DNA of 64,000 nucleotides, taken from NCBI GenBank assembly GCA_001643675.2, contig LSRY02000041.1, positions 496,001 to 560,000 on the forward strand, read 5' to 3'. A model generated the notes under the pieces. The model did not search any database, had not been told where the DNA came from, and was given only the letters and a program-made list of their open reading frames with translations. This document shows positions 20,452-50,012 of the stretch, piece after piece. Numbering within the stretch: the stretch's first letter is position 1; each line of letters opens with the position of its first letter. A program made the position numbers and the translations under genes. This DNA comes from Monocercomonoides exilis PA203. Its lineage: Eukaryota > Protista > Preaxostyla.

Positions 20452-22605
20452 GAAAGTCAATAAATTATTTCTAAACAATTTTCAAGTCGAGTACAAAAAT
20501 GAGTTTTATCAAAAGAATTTAACTTCAACAAAATTCATGAGAAAGACACGTTGTGGTAACAATTTATTCGCCTTAAGTTTGCTTTGAGATAATGATTTGA
20601 TCTCTTTGAATTGTTTCTCAAATGGATAACTGATTGATAGAAATTAACCATCATCGTAAAAAGAAACGAAACGAAGAAAATGAAACATTATTTGAAATGG
20701 AGCGAGAGATAAAGAACAAACTTCAGGGAAGAGTGAAACAATTAAAAGCCAAGTCAAGAGGAATGTGTTGGCAAGGAGCAGGTACAGATGCTGAGAAACT
20801 GGATGATTGTGTTGTTTTTTATGCTTAAGGAGATGTTTGAGAGCTTGATTGAGGAAGACAAAACAGAATTGATCAGAAAAAAGAAAAGTTAGGAATGTGA
20901 GGAGCGTGAGGAGTGTGAAGACTATGGGGAGCTGGCTGAGGCCTTTGAAGAGCTGGTTTTCTCGTATATGGTGAACCGAACAGATCTGGTGAAGAAAATG
21001 CTGCTGAGCACGCTGTGCCGGCTGCGGCTGTTTGTAATTCTTTCGGTGGCGATGACTGAAAGGGGGCTTCGGATGGCAGGGGTGGAAGACAGCACGGCAA
21101 TGGAGGAAGCACCAGAGTGAGCATGATGGGATTGTTGAGTGTGTGACTGTGTGCGAAGGAGAAGGATTCGAAGTTGTTCATGTGAAAATGGATTGCTGGT
21201 TTTGCTGATTTGTTTTATGTGTGTGTATCTTTAAATGTGTTTTCATATTTTTCATTTTTTTGTTGAATCAACTCATTTGTTATTTTCATATCAACACAAA
21301 AAAAAGCAGATGAAAACTGTCTTTTTTCTCATTGTCTCTCAGTTGAAAAGTGATTTCACATTGCAGAATATGAGAAGCGAACTTTCGTGAGTTTCTGTCT
21401 GCTTGAAAATGTTTTTCGATAACGTTATTGCAGTTGAAATAAACAGAATCGAAAAAACAGAGATTCTATTTGCTTATCAAAAACCATTAAAATATGAAAG
21501 TGCTTTCGTATGTGAATTGGTTTTCTTTATGTGACTCTCCGTTTTTGAGGGAAGTGATGGAAATGCAAATCAAAAGAGAGCTTCAGAGAAAAGCCAGCAC
21601 AATTATATATAAATGTTAGAATATCGTTTTTCTCCATTTTTAATCTCTTTGTTTTTTGAACAGTTGAAAATAAGTTTGGTTTTTTCAATTGAAGAAATTC
21701 AATGGTTTGTTTTTTTACAAAAGTTCTTTCATTCCTTTCATTCCTTTTGAAGTTCACAAAAATGGATGCATTATTTTCTGATGGAAAAAAAGAAAGAGTT
21801 ATTTTCTTAAAACACACATATACACTGTATCATGCATCTGCTCCATCAATCTTTACTCCGCCACTCCATTCATCCTCAAATGGATAATTGTGTGGAGGTG
21901 ATTTTGTTAATCTCTTGCTCATCACAGAAACATTAGAAGAAGAAGAAACACTCAATAATTCGACGAAAGAAAACCAAAATACATTTCTATGAAAATAACC
22001 ATGTGATTTGAGAATTATGCAATGATTCAACACGTTACAACATCTATTGAAAAAGTTTAATCTTGTAATATGTTTTACAGATCATGAAATATTCAAAATA
22101 ATTTCAATAATAAGATGCATCCAAACTGTTTGTTCTTTGACTTAAAACAGTGAACCAAGTCTTTTGTTGTAAAAGTCATTATTATTAAATTTACTAATCG
22201 TCACTTGAAATATTTTAATCTTGAAGAAAACTTTCATTTTTGAAATAAATAAGTTTTTGTTTTGAACGTCATGAATCTTCTCGTATTTTGAAATGTTATT
22301 TCAGTCCAATTTCAATTATTTTCCCATATCACTCATTTCAACTTTTTTATTTTTATCAAATCTTTTCAAAACAATGATGCAAAACAGTGGCTATAAATAA
22401 TTTTCTATGGGCGTTAACAATTTTTGTTTTCAAAATCAGTTGATCTTCTTTAATGAGCGTTTCATTCGGAATGGAAACTGTCCAATGATAAACTCACTTT
22501 TCAAACACTCGCCAATTGGATCCAAACCATTTATTGCATCCAGTTTGTGTTTGAATTAAGGATGTGTTGATCTATAGAATTATTGATCAAGAAACATTAA
22601 AACTC

Positions 22606-25032
22606 ATGCTATTTGTTTTTCTGGCTTTCACATTTGCAACATCACAAGAATTTGATGAAGGAAAGTCTTATTCAGTTTATGTGAAGCAAAGCGGAAGTGA
22701 CACTAACACTGGCACAGAAATCGGTAAGGAAAGGAAATCATTGAAAAGTGCATATAGTCAGCTGGGAGATGATGAAGCATGTAAGATCTATATTGTGAAT
22801 GACGCAACTGCACTAACTGCACAGCAAACATCATTCTACAAAAATCAAGGAATCACCATTGAAGGAGTTGACAGCAAAGGAACAAAAAATGAAGTTGTAT
22901 CAATTAATTGTGATGTGCATCCAGATGGAGATCTATTTTCTTGTGGTGGAGATACAGAATTCAAATATTTGTCATTCCATTTTCCAACAGTATTATGCAG
23001 AGATAGAGGTTATGCATTAATCAGAGGAACTTCTGGAGAACTGACTATTAAAAATTGTCAATTTATTCGACCACCATCAAATGTGGGAACTGTGGGTTAT
23101 AGCCTTGTGTATATGGAAAGAGGGAATTTAAATATGGATTCAGTGGAGTGCAGTGATGAGAGTCGCACAGTTGTATTTGAAGGTGGAATTTTTTCTTTAG
23201 GCGCTAGAAATACGGTTTCATTAACGAATTTGACTTTGAAAAAAATATCAAGTGACTCTTCAATTGTTTCCATTTTTGGTGAAAATGAAAACAAATTGGA
23301 TGTCTCTTTGAACAACTGCACATTCACTGAATGTCAAACAAATGGTTCTCATTTGTTGTACATTTTGGACAGTAATAGTGAAAGTACATTTACCGTTGGT
23401 GATGCGGGAGTAACGTCTTTTTCTTCATGCAGCAGCAGTGGTCCAAATGGCAAAACAAGTGGAATTTTTTTGGGAATGGGAAGTATTTCATCAGCGTCCC
23501 AATTCAAATGGCCAATAGATGGAAAGAATTTGGTTTTTCAGAATTGCACAGCTTATGATAGTGGCAAAAAGAGAAACACAGGATTGTACATTCATATGAG
23601 AAATGATTCTTTGTTCAAAGATATGGCAGATGCAATGAAGGCAAGTTTTGCAGCAAATTACACAAGGAGAGACAATTCGTGGTTTATTGTAGGGGTTGAT
23701 CAAAATTATAAAGTCTATGATTTTACAAGTTTGTATTTTGATCCACCTCCTCCAAAGCCAGATAATATGACAAGAGCATTTGCGAAGAATGGAGGGAGGG
23801 GAAATGGAATTGATGTTAATTCTGCAATAAACAGCTTGAAGGAAGCTTATGATTTCTTGGAAAAGAGCGGGAAATGTTTTATCGATATTATCAAAACGGA
23901 TGATCCAATCAAAGCACAAGGCATAAGTTTCAGCATCAACAGTGGAATAACAATTGAAGGAGTGAATGACAATGGAGAGGGAAACACAGAAGTTGCAATT
24001 GATTGTGATGTTTCTGTTTCATCAATTCTCTTTTCTTGCCAGAAAACTGTGGAATTCCAGTATCTAGCATTCCAATTCTCTTCAACAGAAAAGAATTGGG
24101 ACTCATTGATCAGTGCTGGATCAGGTTCAATATCACTGAAAATATCAACATGTCGATTTGCCAGAATTGGATCACAATCACAAGAAGGAATGGAATCAAA
24201 TGCGGATGGAGACAGCCCCTTGGAAAGCAGTCTTGTGAGTGTAACATTTGGAAGTGTGGAAATGGACACGGTGAAATGCACAGATGAAACCTCATTTGTG
24301 ACATTCTCATCATCACCATTTTCATTTTCTGGAGCCAGCGAGGTGTCATTGAGTGGAATGGACATCAGCAAAGTGAATGTGGAAAGTGGAGCAGCAATCA
24401 GCATCGATGATGGGATCAATTCATCTTCGAAGGTTTCAATCGAAGGATTGAATGTTCGAGAAGTGAAATCGGAGAAAGGAGCAGCAGCAGGGTTGGATAT
24501 CACCCTCAGTTCAGAAGAATCAAGAGTGGCTATTGGAAGGACAAGCAAATGCTCATTCAAGTCTTGTTCAGCACCAGAAGGGAAATCAGGAGCAATATTC
24601 ATTGACATGCCCAAGGCAACATCGAATCTGCAACTCCCATCAGAACACAACCTGGAGATCGACAGCTCAAACACAGCTGGCTCAAAAACAACTTCTCTGT
24701 TCATCATTGCCCCAGACTTCGAAGAGTTCTGCAAACAAGAAGATGCCTTTGCGTTTGCGAATGACTACGATGAGTCAACATCTGGGTGGATCGAGGGAGC
24801 AATTGATGAAGAATCAGAGCCTGAGGATGTGTATGAGAAGTGTGTGAAAGTGAGACAAGAGAAACTGAAAGATCAAAATAAAAAGAGGAAGGAGGGGACC
24901 ATTGTTGCCATTGTTGTGCCAATTGTTGTTGTGGTTGCAGTTGTGGTGATTGTGATTGTCATTGTTGTTGTGAGGAAAAGGAAATCAAGAAATGAAGAGA
25001 ATAACGGAAAGGAACAAGAAATGAATGATTGA
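22606..25032 (+). CDS. Type I membrane/surface protein with two tandem ~365-aa units (probable beta-helix/pectin-lyase-like fold)
   Basis: Signal peptide MLFVFLAFTFATS from ATG 22606; repeated blocks ITIEGV..INCDV..LFSC..EFKYLSFHF and ITIEGV..IDCDV..LFSC..EFQYLAFQF; DPPPPKP linker; C-terminal TM IVAIVVPIVVVVAVVVIVIVIVVV followed by RKRK. The fold call is inference. Confidence 0.8.
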   Translation: MLFVFLAFTFATSQEFDEGKSYSVYVKQSGSDTNTGTEIGKERKSLKSAYSQLGDDEACKIYIVNDATALTAQQTSFYKNQGITIEGVDSKGTKNEVVSINCDVHPDGDLFSCGGDTEFKYLSFHFPTVLCRDRGYALIRGTSGELTIKNCQFIRPPSNVGTVGYSLVYMERGNLNMDSVECSDESRTVVFEGGIFSLGARNTVSLTNLTLKKISSDSSIVSIFGENENKLDVSLNNCTFTECQTNGSHLLYILDSNSESTFTVGDAGVTSFSSCSSSGPNGKTSGIFLGMGSISSASQFKWPIDGKNLVFQNCTAYDSGKKRNTGLYIHMRNDSLFKDMADAMKASFAANYTRRDNSWFIVGVDQNYKVYDFTSLYFDPPPPKPDNMTRAFAKNGGRGNGIDVNSAINSLKEAYDFLEKSGKCFIDIIKTDDPIKAQGISFSINSGITIEGVNDNGEGNTEVAIDCDVSVSSILFSCQKTVEFQYLAFQFSSTEKNWDSLISAGSGSISLKISTCRFARIGSQSQEGMESNADGDSPLESSLVSVTFGSVEMDTVKCTDETSFVTFSSSPFSFSGASEVSLSGMDISKVNVESGAAISIDDGINSSSKVSIEGLNVREVKSEKGAAAGLDITLSSEESRVAIGRTSKCSFKSCSAPEGKSGAIFIDMPKATSNLQLPSEHNLEIDSSNTAGSKTTSLFIIAPDFEEFCKQEDAFAFANDYDESTSGWIEGAIDEESEPEDVYEKCVKVRQEKLKDQNKKRKEGTIVAIVVPIVVVVAVVVIVIVIVVVRKRKSRNEENNGKEQEMND

Positions 25033-25811: not shown

Positions 25812-25949
25812 ATTCGCAATAAAGCGAATCTATGAACGCAAGGAGCAGGTTTACTCCTCAATAATGAGTTTGATCTTTAATTATGGGTGGTTTAAGATCA
25901 TACTTCGCTATCGAATTAACTTCTTTTCATACCATTATCCGCAGTTGAA

Positions 25950-27188
25950 ATGAAGCTAAATCCTGTTAGTATGGCAGACGGTGACAGCGAAGTGAAGACC
26001 GTTGATCTTGTTCATATGCTAAAGAGAGTTGAAAATTGGATTGATGAAGTGTCGAGGAGCGGAGGAGGACTAAGTCACTCTGGAGCAAAAGGAATAATAC
26101 CAACGAGAAAAATGAAGAGGGAACGGCAAGGATGAAGATCTCTGTCGAGACCTAGCGAATCTGAATGGGAAACTAATATTTCAGATATCATTACAAAGAA
26201 GAGACACAGACAACCATTGAGGGGTAGTCGCGTTCGTAATCAGATGAAGAGATGGGACTAAGAGGAAAGCAGCGTGAGCGATTCCTGAATCGCAAAAAAG
26301 CGGGAAGAAGAGCAGGAAAGATCGGAAGACTTTTTGGGAATTTTCCCAGACGAATGGCTGACGCCCAGGATGCAAGCGGGCGAACTGAAGAGATTTATGG
26401 AGTTTTTCAAGGCCAGATCGATCAGAATAAACAATGATATCTTAAACACGTTTATTCCAGAGACGGAAAAGAATTTCTTCACCAGACACACTGATGCGAG
26501 TTGGAACGCCTTAGCGGTGACGGGGGTCACTGCGGAGGGAAGAAAAGATTCCCCAGAAGCCGCTCGGGTTATCGAGCTGCTTCAGCTCGCCCTGGAATCG
26601 GGGTTCGAAGCCGCCAAGGCGATTGCAGCCATTACTACAAGAGAATAATGGAAGATGCACATAGAGGAAGAAGAGAAAGAGCGACTGAGGGGGCTCTTTT
26701 GCGCGTACGCCCTAATAGCAGACTGTATCAGCCGCATAAACTTGCTGAAAGTTATCCCTCAATCAAGCTGGGAGAATGTGAAGTGTTTTCTGGACGGGGG
26801 AATGTCCAAGGACATCCCAGAGAGTTTTAGGAGGCTAGTGGATAGCACCAGCTTTTTTCGTCCAGGGGGGGATGCTCCAGGGTACGGAGCATCCCCCGTT
26901 TCTTCCACAACCTTCGGACTCGCCCCAGTCAGGGGCGTGCGCCCAGGGAAGTACAGCACAGGCAGAAACGCCCAGGGCTTCGCCTATTGACAGTTTCAAA
27001 AACGTGGCTTCGATGGGAGCTTTACAAATTTCAAACAAAGAAGGAGGTCAACACAAACTCGACCGCAACAGGCCCCAGCAACAGCTGGGAGAGCTCCCTC
27101 GTTCACAGTCCCCCTTCCTCCAGCTCCCCCGAGGATACAGGGAGGAACAACAACAAGAACATCTATTGGAACAAACCAATGGACCTAG
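25950..27188 (+). pseudogene. DIRS ORF1 (gag-like) with several in-frame stops
   Basis: ORF-track pieces 25950, 26334 and 26655 are all in one frame and lie upstream of pol; Arg/Gly/Pro-rich C-terminus. Confidence 0.65.
26852..26897 (+). promoter_or_regulatory. Candidate programmed ribosomal frameshift signal
   Basis: C TTT TTT C(GT) in the gag frame, 7-8 nt spacer, then a perfect 12-bp stem GGGGGATGCTCC / GGAGCATCCCCC with a 7-nt loop (26867-26897). Confidence 0.6.
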
Positions 27189-27679
27189 AAGAGAGATACG
27201 CGCTTCGCCGCGAGACAGAGTGAGAAGAGAGAGCCGCGCTTTGTCGCGAGACAGAGATGGACAGAATGCTATCGAATTTCGAAGGAACGACAATGCTAAA
27301 TGGAATCCAATTCAATCGGCACATTGTAACAAGAAGGGAGCCTTTGGGAGATTACGAGAATATCGAAGAGACACTGAGCTCATTCTATCGAGAGAAGAGT
27401 TAAAATCAAGATATCTCGAAAGATCACGAGATGGGAACATTGAGAGAGAACACAGAAGTAAACTTAGTATATCCCCGCAGGACAAGACACAAGAACGATC
27501 GGAGATCCGGGAAGGAGGAAGAGAAGGGAGCCTTGAGAGCTTCTGGGATTGTTATCAAGTTCCAAATTGGGAGTACATTGGAGGTGAGCTCGAAGACAGC
27601 TATTGCAGACATTTTCGAAGGAGAAGGGAATACACAGATGCAGCATGGCCACAAGACGCCAGAATTGAGGAGGAGTGAA

Positions 27680-29640
27680 GCGATTGAACCACTGAGGAAA
27701 CCACTTCCTGGAAGGCTAGTGAACAGGCTGAGTTAGTGGAAGAAGATTGGAGGAGACAAACTAGTGAGCCGTGGTATAAGAGCTCGATGGAAAAGTCCCC
27801 AATCCCCAATCTCATTGGAGGAGAGAAAACACAGACAAGAGTTTCGGTGTACGACGGAGATGATGAACAATTATTTATCCCTCTTGGAGGAGGAATTGAA
27901 GGATGGAGTGGTGAAGCCCATACAGGAGTCGGAGGTGAAGTGGTTCAATCCGACATTCATGGTGATAAAGAAGAACGGAAAGTGGAGAAAGATCCTGGAT
28001 TGCAGAGCTCTAAACGAAAAAGTGCAGGGAAAACACTTCAAGATGGATTCCCAGGAGACAGTGGTGGAACTCCTGGAGGAGAACGACTGGATGACAACTC
28101 TGGACATATCGAGTGCATACCAACATGTCAAAGTGGACGAACAATTCAGTCCCTATCTGTGCTAGAGCTTTCAAAGCCAATGTTTTGCTTTCGTAGGGAT
28201 TCCATTTGGAGCAAAGGAAGCGCGCAGAGTTTTCACGAAGATAATGAGAAGGGCGGAGTCATATATCAGAGAACAGTGGAGAGTGAAGCTAGTGATATAC
28301 CTGGACGACATTCTCCTCATGCATCCAGACAGGGAAGTTTTGAGATCGATCTCACAGGAGATAGCCCAGTTCCTGAGAAATCTGGGCTGGATACTGTCCG
28401 AGGAGAAGCTGAAGTTGGAACCCGCAAGGAGCGTGGAGTTTCTGGGATGGTTGTGGAACTCAGAGAAGATGGAAGTTACGCTCCAGGAGAGGAAGAGAGT
28501 GCTGCTCCTGGAGGATGTGAGAACGTGGATTGTACATGCAAAGAAGAGGAGGAGACAAAAGACGAGGGATTTAGCAGCACTCCTCGGGAGGCTGAATTTT
28601 GTGAGACTGCAACACCCACCTGCGAGCTTGTGGATGAAGCTCATGCAATACGTGCTGAGGTAGGCAATAGCCCGCGGGGGCTGGAAGGGAATCGTGATAG
28701 TCAACCAAATGATTCTGGGAGAATTAACACATCGGAGAAAGACCCTGCGAGAGAACAGACTAAGGAGTCTGAGGAGAAGGAATAGACCAGCAGAGTTAAT
28801 AACGGACGCGTCAGAGCTGGGATGGGGTGCAGCGTTAACAGTACCGAAAGAGAACAAAGAGGAGAAGATATATGTCCATGGAAGTTGGACACCCCGGGAG
28901 AGCACGCTTGCAATCAACAAGAAGGAGTCCAGAGCAGTGTCGAGAACACAAGAGAGAAAGGATGCATGGCTGCAACAGCAGGAGAGAGGCCATATTCGTC
29001 TGAAGACAGACAACATGTCCACGAGTTGGACGATTCAGAAGAAGAGGTGAGCGCTATCGCTCATTCCAACACTGAGAGCATTGGAGAAGAAACTGAACAG
29101 CCTGGACATTACGATACAAACGGAACATCTCCCGGGAGAGCAGAACACGGAAGCAGATGCACTCAGCCGGATGGCGAAAAAGCCGGACTATGCACTGAGG
29201 GGGAAGAAAGTCGCAGAGATAGTACAAACAATCGCACCGAGAACACTAGATACAATTTTGGAACAGATTGCGCCGGTGCCCTGTGGAAGAACTTGGAGAC
29301 TATCCTCTGTGAGAAGGAAGAGAGAGAGTGAGAAACGCAAAAAAACGAGAAAGTACTAGTCCACCAGTTCCTGAGAAATATTGGACGGGTGCTGAAAGAG
29401 AAAATGAAGGAAGCGCAGAGGGATCTGACGATTCTGATTCTTCCAGCCTGGCGGGGGCAGACCTGGACCCCGCTGCTGCAGCCTGGGCATTTGATAAAGA
29501 CCCTGGGGACCTTTCAGGAGTGAATGATAACGGGAGCGAATATGAGGAGGGAAGGCTGGAAACTACCCCCAGGAGAGGAAATAAGCGTTATACTGGAGAG
29601 GAAAATATCCAAGGAAGGGACCTCTTTTTTTCAAAAGGAG
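27680..29640 (+). pseudogene. DIRS pol: reverse transcriptase - RNase H - N6-adenine-methyltransferase-like domain, with stops and a frameshift near 29340
   Basis: PGRL..W, WRKILDCRALN, TTLDISSAYQHV, GIPFG, YLDD (28298-28309), LITDASELGWGA (about 28800), TDN, EHLPGEQNTEADALSR, then VLVH..LRNIGRVL...LILPAWRGQTWTPLL. Stops at 28163, 28661, 29048 and 29521. The same frame is traceable upstream to 26831. Confidence 0.9.
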
Positions 29641-30968
29641 AATATGTTGAAGCGAAGGATTTATCAGCAGCAATATTAAGAAACCAAAAGAGTGAAAGAG
29701 ACACGTGGAGAGCGCTGCGAAGATTCATGCAATTCCTTGATAGAGAAAGTGTGGATGACACAGTTTTCCTCACATCCAGAGATGCCAGATGGATTATGGC
29801 AGAATTTTCAGAAACTCTATCCAATGCAAATATTTCAAGGGGAGAGATTAACAAAGCTGAACGAAAAGAATTATTGTTTATTAACCTTTTCAGAAGAAAT
29901 TAAGACGAATGGAGAGAAGGCGAGAAAGGTCAAGAGATTAAAATCAATGTGGGATCTCACAATTATCACAAGATGGGAAGAAGCCACAAAGAATTCCATC
30001 AACCCGCATATTCTCCAGAGGAGAGCCCTCGTCCTCACAATGGTTTTTGGGGCTTTAAGGCCATCAGAGCCGGAGAGAATGAGAAGTGATACAACGATAT
30101 TTAAAGATAATTTGGTCCAGACACAAGAACAAACAAAAACATCCAGGGGAGAGACAGTTAAGGTGATTATAAATTGACATCCAAACCCACGTATCGATGC
30201 AGTGTGGGTGCTCCAACGTTGGATGGACTATTCCAAGACGACTTTTAAAGACGAACATGTGTGGTTTGACATTGAAGGGAGAAGGCCTGCAAATTTGCAG
30301 AGAATAAAGGAAGAGTAAACAGATATTCCGAGAGAGAGCGGAAAACAGGAAACATTCACCGTGTACTCGATAAGACATTCAGTGATAACACACTAAGCAA
30401 ATCAAGAAGGTGCAGATTGGAAGGCAATTAATGCGAACGCGAGATGGGCACCAGGTTTGAGAGTGTCACAGGAATACAATACCGTTTTCTGGTTCAAGAT
30501 ACAAAATTAATCCTGGAGACAATCGGAGGACCAGCACCTCAGAGGAGAGAAGATTACAAGCCAGATAAGAGTGGAGATTCGAAGGAGGGGACGCTGGAGA
30601 TTGCAGAGGCAGATATGAAAGATCGTACCGAGGAATCACCAAAATCTGGTATTGAACAAGGGAGGAAACCTACGAGAAAGCGATCGAAACGAAGAAAGAT
30701 ACAACTGAGTGAAGAAGGAAAAAAAAGTGAAACGGCTCAGTCACGAAGCTCTTCACCCAGACAACCGAGTCGTCAGAGGACACCCCCCATAATCCCCAGT
30801 AACATCAGTGAGCTGGCTGGAGTGTGGGACATAACTCCACGGAAGAAGAGAGGCAAAGATCGGAAGAAACGTAGCGAAAGAAGTATCGGACAAACAGGGA
30901 ATGACACTGAAGAAGAAAGGGCCAAGCCGATGTCGCCTCAAAGATATCCCAAGAGAGGGAGGGAGTAG
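29600..30968 (+). pseudogene. DIRS tyrosine recombinase (helical N-terminal part + catalytic domain) with a basic C-terminal tail; disrupted
   Basis: MWDL, RALVLTMVFGALRPSE (catalytic R, about 30058), TKT, YSIRHS (HxxR box variant, 30364-30381), ARWAPG...EY; internal stops and frameshifts. Confidence 0.85.
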
Positions 30969-31132
30969 AGACAGGTGCCGCACCTTCATCCGCAGTCCCT
31001 CTATTCATCCGCCGCACTTGATCGTGCTAGGAAGGTGGTTTAAGATCACGTGTACAAAGATAGAAGGGATTTCAGACTTCATTATTGAGGAGCAAACCTG
31101 CTCCTTGGATTCCTTTGTTCGCTCTATTGCGA

Positions 31133-31830
31133 ATTGATAGAACACAGAGAGACAGGATTTGCTCCGAAATAATACGAACGCGGATGGAGAGACGAAACGC
31201 GGATGGGTGTGAAAGAGAGAAACATATTAGGAGGAATATGACGAGAAAAAGGGCGAGATATCCAAGAGAAGAGAGGAGAACCAACCGCCCGAAAGCACAA
31301 GGTTGCACCCACAATGTGGATAGAGATTCATGAAATGAATAAAGAGTTTTAAGTGGGATCCCACTTCCTGAATTGGTGATGAACAAGTGCAAAGAGAACA
31401 GTCAGATCTGTCCATGCAGAGCGCTATGATAGGGTTTGCTCTGTTGGATCAACATAAGAACGGGAGGCAGTGTGTATCACACGCAGTTTTCTTTTCCACG
31501 CCTCGCGAAAGCGAGAGTAGTTTTTCTTTCTGCTCCAAGAATACTCGCCTCACCGGATCCCTGCACGGCCTGCAGGAGAGAGCTCCGAGTGGCAATGTCC
31601 CCTGCCCTCTGTTCTTCGTGATCAAGGCGAAAAGGCGAAGTAGGTGGTGAAGTGAAGCGGACAATTCATAATATTCTTTTTTATAGTTTGAATGTTTTTG
31701 TTTATATTTTCATCTCGCCCATTTTTCCACGTCATTTGGGATATGCCGAAGTTTTTCACTTAAACAACACATAAATCGTAATCAATACTCATTATCTCGG
31801 AGCAAACCTGTCTCACTGCGTTCTGTCAAT
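31133..31830 (-). mobile_element. Non-autonomous 698-bp DIRS-related element with its own ITRs, opposite orientation
   Basis: ITRs 31133-31173 / 31791-31830 (36/41 identical) share the core CAGG(A)TTTGCTCC..ATAAT with the large element; the reverse complement of 31745-31823 aligns to 25834-25907. Confidence 0.75.
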
Positions 31831-49783: not shown

Positions 49784-50012
49784 AATTTTTTTGAAAAGTT
49801 CCTTTTGTTTAATTTTCAAATAAAATTAAAATTTCATTTTTCAATCAAATTTCTGTTCTCTCCCATGAAACTTCACAAAAATAAAAATAATACCAATGTC
49901 AAGGTTTTTTTTCTTTACAGGAAAATTTGGTGAGTGGGAACAAAAATTTGATTGAAATTTGAAATCTTTATTCCTATTGAAAATTTAACAAAAGGAACTT
50001 TTCAAAAAAATT
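49784..50012. mobile_element. Foldback/MITE-like palindrome of about 230 bp
   Basis: The outer 36 bp of the arms match at 35/36 (AATTTTTTTGAAAAGTTCCTTTTGTT.AATTTTCAA); imperfect pairing continues for about 90 bp. Confidence 0.6.

Follow-up and report, generated by a model that had tools for sequence, protein, structure and literature searches.

A conserved candidate site for two-way translational recoding in the gag-like ORF of a DIRS1-like retrotransposon family of Monocercomonoides exilis

How would a retrotransposon express its reverse transcriptase (RT) and its recombinase when both reading frames open inside the gag gene, one in each alternative frame? The question is raised by an element of about 6 kb located in the window, the whole 64-kb stretch of M. 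exilis DNA analysed here, for which a single recoding site feeding both downstream ORFs had been proposed. The DIRS literature covered, including the covered part of PMC3266345, describes ORF overlaps and does not address the mechanism by which the second and third ORFs are translated. No description of frameshifting in DIRS elements was found in the literature searched, no DIRS recoding is proposed in the covered parts of PMC8547959 and PMC1965478, the word 'DIRS' is absent from the covered part of the Atkins review, and no literature combining Monocercomonoides and DIRS was found; an earlier suggestion of -1 frameshifting is possible in the papers of Goodwin and Poulter or in supplements, which lie outside this scope. 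Statements drawn from papers cited by PMC number refer to the covered parts of those papers.

The element is a decayed DIRS1-like tyrosine-recombinase retrotransposon, an assignment based on inverted terminal repeats (ITRs), an internal region complementary to both ends, RT/RNase H, and a tyrosine recombinase. Its main features are as follows.

25812..31830, + strand: DIRS1-like retrotransposon, decayed; this copy has numerous in-frame stops as well as several frameshifts
25812..25896, + strand: left ITR, starting with ATT, with inverse matches to the internal complementary region and the right ITR
25950..27188, + strand: ORF1, gag-like by position, 412 codons, interrupted in this copy by five internal stops, TGA 26988 among them
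26839..30968, + strand: long overlapping ORF in the +1 frame, ending in a tyrosine recombinase domain, interrupted here and colinear in the models of other copies
26846..29650 (end approximate), + strand: pol ORF in the -1 frame, with RT, RNase H, and a shortened methyltransferase-like part (Pfam, profile)
27187..27256, + strand: 36-bp tandem repeat just past the gag stop, in frame for both downstream ORFs
31079..31173, + strand: internal complementary region (ICR), with the junction near 31132-31135
31759..31830, + strand: right ITR, with an inverse match to the left ITR

Positions 25812-25867 are inverse to ICR positions 31079-31134 (86%), and positions 25834-25896 to the right end at 31759-31823 (77%). 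The ICR comprises two pieces, 31079-31134 and 31133-31173; the left end carries ATT and the circular junction AAT, and the right end matches the trinucleotide imperfectly. An exact 15-nt direct repeat occurs near the left ITR (25886-25900) and just ahead of the ICR (31034-31048), and the copy number of the 36-bp repeat varies, with many copies in other family members and both downstream frames kept. The window contains no second copy of the element, and Rfam returned no meaningful match. Directly upstream of the element lies an 825-codon host ORF (22555-25032, + strand) with internal repeats and a C-terminal transmembrane-like segment; elsewhere in the window, AT-rich arms of 107 nt at 49784-50012, 78% complementary and 15 nt apart, may represent a foldback or MITE-like element.

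The gag-like label of ORF1 is based on position and size; it has no Pfam match, a profile search returned 22 matches, apparently all of the same family, and the 24 gag homologues found are all named M. exilis gene models. Pfam matches to PF00078 and PF17917 at 27698-29233 confirmed that the -1 frame encodes RT/RNase H, as had been predicted. The methyltransferase-like part at 29341-29613, frame-shifted in this copy, aligns with the relatives' pol profile at positions 552-641 (E 1e-16); profile positions 513-551 are missing, and there is no Pfam methylase match. In the +1 frame, the tyrosine recombinase domain was located at 29926-30477 with our own profile (E 4e-39); PF00589 matches the family models P0008 and P0011, and the window's own recombinase fragments have no Pfam match. 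Since the +1 frame is covered colinearly by models of other copies (26812 to 28764 in P0095, 27820 to the recombinase end in P0011), the frame assignment is right, and the frame predicted to lead to the recombinase is the +1 frame. None of the three ORFs is free of stops in this genomic copy, which is dead, and the mechanism proposed below concerns the family rather than this copy.

The candidate site itself comprises three adjoining features.

26852..26861, + strand: candidate shift site C_UUU_UUU_CGU, a near-canonical -1 heptamer overlapping a UUU_CGN +1 motif
26859..26866, + strand: 8-nt spacer, which includes the CAG|G (26863-26866) of a rival splice acceptor
26867..26897, + strand: 12-bp GC-rich stem-loop, candidate stimulator

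The gag frame indeed reads AGC TTT TTT CGT at 26850-26861, with the T6 run at 26853-58, and the stem is perfect as described, pairing 26867-78 with 26886-97 around a 7-nt loop, 8 nt past the U-run. This places it 5-9 nt downstream, where a stimulatory structure is expected, and within the usual frameshift-site spacing of 5-8 nt (PMC3458567). The stem folds at -27.6 kcal/mol (z -4.15), with none of 200 shuffles equally stable, and it is the sole perfect stem of at least 12 bp in the window and the sole one of at least 9 bp in the element. A second GC hairpin of 6 bp lies at 26922-26938, about 25 nt past the main stem. UUU_CGN stands in the zero frame where the open +1 ORF begins, and CGN codons are scarce (11/40 Arg codons in gag, 4/25 in one host gene). 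Stops in the two alternative frames number 24 and 15 in the 300 gag codons upstream of the site, and 0 and 0 in the 113 codons downstream. Taken by itself, TTTTTTCG is not rare in the window (9 observed vs 11.2 expected); the signal resides in the motif together with its frame, the stem, and the overlap.

Other copies were examined through gene-model proteins and through variant tables for the contigs of four DNA runs, all on a single sample, in which summed contig depth was not taken as copy number. The set of 25 models omits the M. exilis models P0022-24, in which the site in the gag frame is not covered. Of 32 other gag models, 30 retain Phe-Phe (24/25 and 6/7), the exception among the 25 skipping the region, and the contigs of the four runs contain no variant of at least 4% at 26850-58. 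Within 26800-26874, 11 of 25 gag third positions vary; taken by themselves, three invariant ones are weak evidence. The other two Phe-Phe pairs of this gag are encoded with TTC. Ala-Phe-Phe is the reading of four models in the +1 frame, and C at 26852 and both Phe codons as TTT are thereby fixed in them. As C occupies 26852 in every readable copy, the earlier idea that the site may be a decayed U_UUU_UUU is unsupported in this family. The T-run is broken in two single copies, and one model reads Leu-Phe. Deletions in the T-run seen in run X1 were rejected as real variants, being confined to X1 and equally frequent at G- and C-runs.

The residue that follows Phe-Phe is Arg in 15, Gln in 8, and His in 1 of 24 models, and Gln in 6 of 7 further models; Gln or His stands in place of Arg in about 40% of gag models. 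CGN, which the Gln subfamily lacks, is therefore not a family-wide feature; a C-initial codon (UUU_C) is compatible throughout. Residues encoded by the 3' arm of the stem are mostly kept in the gag models. The variant 26873 T>C, which breaks one stem pair, accounts for 9% of the depth in run X2 and 42% in run X4, and together with a linked change at 26885 the fold still reaches -25.3. The variant table covers 26800-26874 and appears to list only sites at least about 30 nt from the ends, so the absence of variants past 26874 is unusable as evidence of stem conservation.

The stops around the site fared differently from the U-run. The original prediction named TAG 26828-30 as the last -1-frame stop, missing a TAG at 26843-45, which is itself lost in about 55% of run X2 depth. 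Most of the contig depth lacks the stops at 26828 (T>C/G) and 26836 (26837 A>G), and the opening of both frames within 25 nt is for this reason a trait of this copy only. The predicted end of the three-frame opening near 26990 also proved particular to this copy: TGA 26988 is a lesion that reads Arg in other copies, and gag therefore extends to TAG 27186. One contig suggests a -1-frame stop at 26987. Conservation among copies, named at the outset as the check, thus holds for the U-run at the 4% threshold in contigs and not for the upstream stop positions; the idea of one site feeding both RT and recombinase is supported by conservation in other copies and in the distant DIRS families described below, whereas the argument from stop positions fails.

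We propose that the U6 run and the hairpin form a programmed recoding site acting in two directions, -1 to RT and +1 to the recombinase, a reading to which the sequence data lend an even chance. The stem would pause the ribosome with Phe-tRNAs on UUU_UUU. Tandem -1 slippage would then yield Gag(303 aa)-Pol with RT/RNase H, and, at low efficiency, re-pairing of the P-site tRNA-Phe from UUU to UUC, as at influenza PA-X, would yield Gag(303 aa)-recombinase. One mRNA would thus give Gag, Gag-RT, and Gag-recombinase, with the +1 event less frequent than the -1. The products predicted from the coordinates of this copy are Gag of 412 aa, Gag(303) with about 930 further residues, and Gag(303) with about 1370. 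The junction peptides expected are STSFFSSRGG for the -1 slip and STSFFVQGG for the +1 slip, against STSFFFVQGG for a slip of -2. Taken by itself, -1 slippage giving Gag-Pol appears likely, and a PA-X-like +1 slip giving Gag-recombinase is, by itself, slightly favoured. Published mutagenesis showed that C at heptamer position 1 reduced -1 slippage most (PMC3458567); low-efficiency -1 slippage at C_UUU_UUU could be enough for the element. In PA-X, slippage of the P-site tRNA on UUU_C has a frequency of about 1% and is lost when the site is mutated to UUC_AGA (PMC3498833).

The recombinase frame can also be reached by a -2 slip on U6 at the same site, and the original prediction had left +1 and -2 side by side. 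Both subfamilies appear to share U6 followed by C rather than CGN, a U6A run with a stem gives both -1 and -2 products (PMC3458567), and the nsp2 site of PRRSV directs -2 and -1 (PMC4937337). However, the P-site tRNA would face GCU with two mismatches, and any change at heptamer position 1 abolished -2 (PMC3458567), which makes -2 unlikely on GC_UUU_UUU. Moreover, -2 prefers a spacer 1-2 nt shorter, and UUU_CG occurs without U6 in L008 and the L004 group of the distant families. We regard the -2 route as highly improbable, and since it is disfavoured, the route to the recombinase is more likely +1.

To place the site in a wider context, DIRS families outside M. exilis were surveyed. A pol-relative profile fetched 80 metagenomic loci, whose RTs were clustered at 50% identity and sorted by frame layout; 63 of the 80 were mapped, and 22 family representatives were scored. 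Loci short of upstream DNA and duplicates within the 50%-identity clusters were omitted, as were L022, L027, L030, L035, L062, L065, and L068 (decayed or with unassignable gag); L016 and L038 were retained despite doubtful gag assignment. The tree is a quick version with SH-aLRT support only. The window RT, used directly to scan metagenomes, yielded nothing, and viral and prokaryote collections contained no relatives.

Nine families share the triple-overlap layout, in which RT lies in -1, a second long ORF in +1, and both open inside gag. Nearest by RT is L001 (35% identity, same clade at SH-aLRT 100), whose gag is not alignable (E 0.41); it carries CGA TTT TTT CGG (A_UUU_UUU_CGG) with a G-rich stem 9 nt downstream. 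L018, from another clade, carries AAT TTT TTT CGG (U_UUU_UUU_CGG) with a stem 8 nt downstream; the two stems are not significant individually (z -1.45 and -1.69). The heptamer is canonical (X_XXY_YYZ) in L018, and departs from this form in the window (C_UUU_UUU) and L001 (A_UUU_UUU). The compound motif N_UUU_UUU_CG with a stem thus occurs in 2/9 triple-overlap families against 0.011 expected from codon shuffles (P 4.5e-5), and gag-frame UUU_CG in 4/9 against 0.85 (P 0.005), five lacking it, and in 3/13 remaining families against 0.72 (P 0.028); these P values, like the one given below for -1 heptamers, overstate independence, because the motifs were already known at the time of grouping and the families are related to one another. 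Within the overlaps of the triple-overlap families, TTTCG stands in the gag frame in 5/5 cases, and upstream in 1/9. In L004, L007, and L010, two signals lie apart, an invariant CAGCCCTTTCG block followed by an invariant A_AAU_UUU, and folding found no local hairpin in this group (z about -0.3 to 0.1). The +1 ORFs of L001, L004, and L008 were confirmed to contain a recombinase domain; the L018 contig ends before any such domain.

Initiation at internal ATGs offers two other routes to the downstream ORFs, for which the following features are relevant.

26872..26874, + strand: +1-frame ATG inside the stem; three young copies carry ACG here and an ATG in frame at 26884
27179..27181, + strand: RT-frame ATG, 7 nt ahead of the gag stop, Val in two subfamily-B models

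The ATG at 26872 had been pointed out originally and is present. In one alternative, frameshifting of -1 would serve RT only, and translation of the recombinase would begin at ATG 26872 or 26884, the template being a spliced or a shorter RNA. All five copies readable in the +1 frame (window, P0095-97, and P0104) have an ATG of that frame no more than 30 nt from the site: P0104 keeps 26872, and the three young copies have lost it, yet offer 26884. The first ATG past the site is in the +1 frame in 4/7 loci, and the Gln subfamily has no CGN, which also fits such a start. The exchange of 26872 for 26884 may, however, be structural, as the 26885 change also adds a stem pair. Six ATGs precede this start at the 5' end alone, L007 and L018 have no +1-frame ATG near the site (the first in the recombinase frame of L007 lies about 780 nt past it), and UUU_CG recurs in the gag frame only. 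We consider this alternative unlikely.

The second alternative dispenses with recoding: RT would be made by reinitiation at ATG 27179 after termination of gag, and both the U-run and the stem would be by-products of the Gag sequence. The chance-level frequency of TTTTTTCG in the window agrees with this, and ATG 27179 encodes Met in P0002, P0012, and P0031, but Val in P0011 and P0110. A gag stop overlapping an RT-frame ATG (TGATG) occurs at L004:1067-1071 and is not kept in L007 or L010. As a point for recoding, conserved pol sequence begins more than 100 nt ahead of the first RT-frame ATG in 7 of 12 loci. Reinitiation would leave unexplained why both alternative frames have 113 codons free of stops, why the stem is unique, and why the motif recurs in L001 and L018, and we judge it very unlikely.

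A further alternative reads the U-run as the polypyrimidine tract of a splice acceptor (TTTTTTCGTCCAG|G at 26865/26866), with the downstream ORFs translated from spliced RNA. The acceptor looks good, positions 26864-65 are invariant, and the codon ahead of the acceptor is, without exception in either subfamily, NCN (P/A/S/T), with G after it; the host is, in addition, intron-rich with GT-AG introns (PMC6759080). However, the corresponding contexts of L001 and L018 are purine-rich AAG, L010 has no AG within 30 nt, and the gag-frame register kept by 5/5 motifs would be needless for a splice site. The stem would begin 1 nt into the exon, the lone donor-like site by the gag ATG is present in 2/16 models, and none of the retrieved gene models, inspected by eye, joins at 26866. 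A crude intron survey of the 64-kb window found nothing. We judge splicing at this site quite unlikely. In models P0002, P0008, P0011, and P0095-P0097, gag is joined to other frames by predicted introns that differ among copies, which is consistent with a gene finder bridging a frameshift.

Recoding signals of the conventional kind were found in DIRS families with other layouts. Where RT lies in -1 and the recombinase ORF is separate, a canonical -1 heptamer, U_UUA_AAC or A_AAA_AAC, is present in 6/6 families against 0.68 expected (P 9e-7), with a stem 5-8 nt downstream in 5/6; these six families form one clade. The corresponding figure for families with RT in +1 is 0/5. The -1 signals are located at L006:918, L029:1672, L013:1769, L033:1739, L039:741, and L024:1252.

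Several additional arrangements were observed. In L037 (2864-2869), one of the three remaining families with UUU_CG, GCC TTT CGT lies in gag within the +1 overlap into RT; here, UUU_CGN may be real and direct a +1 shift whose product would be pol and not the recombinase. A different DIRS layout places the recombinase ORF after gag and in frame with it, with a single stop between them, often TGA-C (TGA CAC, TGA CTA), at L009:985-990, L017:2240-2245, L020:1172-1177, L026:1876-1881, and L040:1003-1008; other families have TGA-A/G or TAA/TAG. TGA-C is a leaky stop context, and the arrangement suggests readthrough to a Gag-recombinase. In L023 (1764-1769) and L031 (1924-1929), gag and RT share a frame with one stop between them, and readthrough to pol is possible.

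Overall, the element is of a known type and carries a real, conserved signal, of which two-way recoding is the best-supported reading judging from sequence. A broader hypothesis, which we hold tentatively and at slightly less than even confidence, is that U6-C(G) with a stem is a natural bidirectional site through which three frames would yield essential Gag-fused proteins, and that DIRS elements at large may use a modular code (-1 heptamer, UUU_CG for +1, and possibly stop readthrough) that would explain their ORF overlaps. If so, the long open stretch ahead of the recombinase domain would serve as the linker that joins Gag to the recombinase in a fusion protein, and one RNA-stimulated site with an essential enzyme as its product in both -1 and +1 would represent a new type of recoding architecture. 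The -1 signals in all six non-overlap families would extend gag-pol frameshifting to the DIRS retrotransposon order. As exact sites and junction peptides are named, these proposals are directly testable.

Among known systems, the closest in organization are DIRS1-like elements with long ORF overlaps, such as Dictyostelium DIRS-1, which share with the window element the ITRs, the ICR, and gag-like, RT-RNase H-methyltransferase-like, and recombinase genes, as well as the long overlap of pol and recombinase ORFs with the catalytic domain in the non-overlapping 3' end (PMC3266345). In contrast to DIRS-1, both downstream ORFs of the window element open inside gag, in -1 and +1, and the methyltransferase-like part is shortened. 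With the -1 gag-pol frameshift sites of retroviruses and LTR elements, exemplified by HIV-1 U_UUU_UUA and its stem-loop, the site has in common a U-rich heptamer, an 8-nt spacer, a stable stem-loop, and a Gag-Pol fusion, here predicted (PMC3458567); it differs from HIV-1 in that the first base of its heptamer is C and that a second long ORF opens at the same place in +1. Influenza A PA-X and the amalgaviruses share the zero-frame UUU_CGN, the open +1 frame, and the scarce CGN codon (PMC3498833, PMC5052127), whereas, in comparison with PA-X, the E-site codon in the window is UUU and not UCC, the motif is superimposed on a -1 signal, and one subfamily has Gln in place of CGN. The PRRSV nsp2 -2/-1 site likewise couples one site to two alternative-frame outputs, which are predicted here (PMC4937337). 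Frameshifting is stimulated by a protein in PRRSV and would be stimulated by an RNA stem in the window element. The PRRSV frameshift outputs are shorter; here, both outputs would be long essential enzymes.
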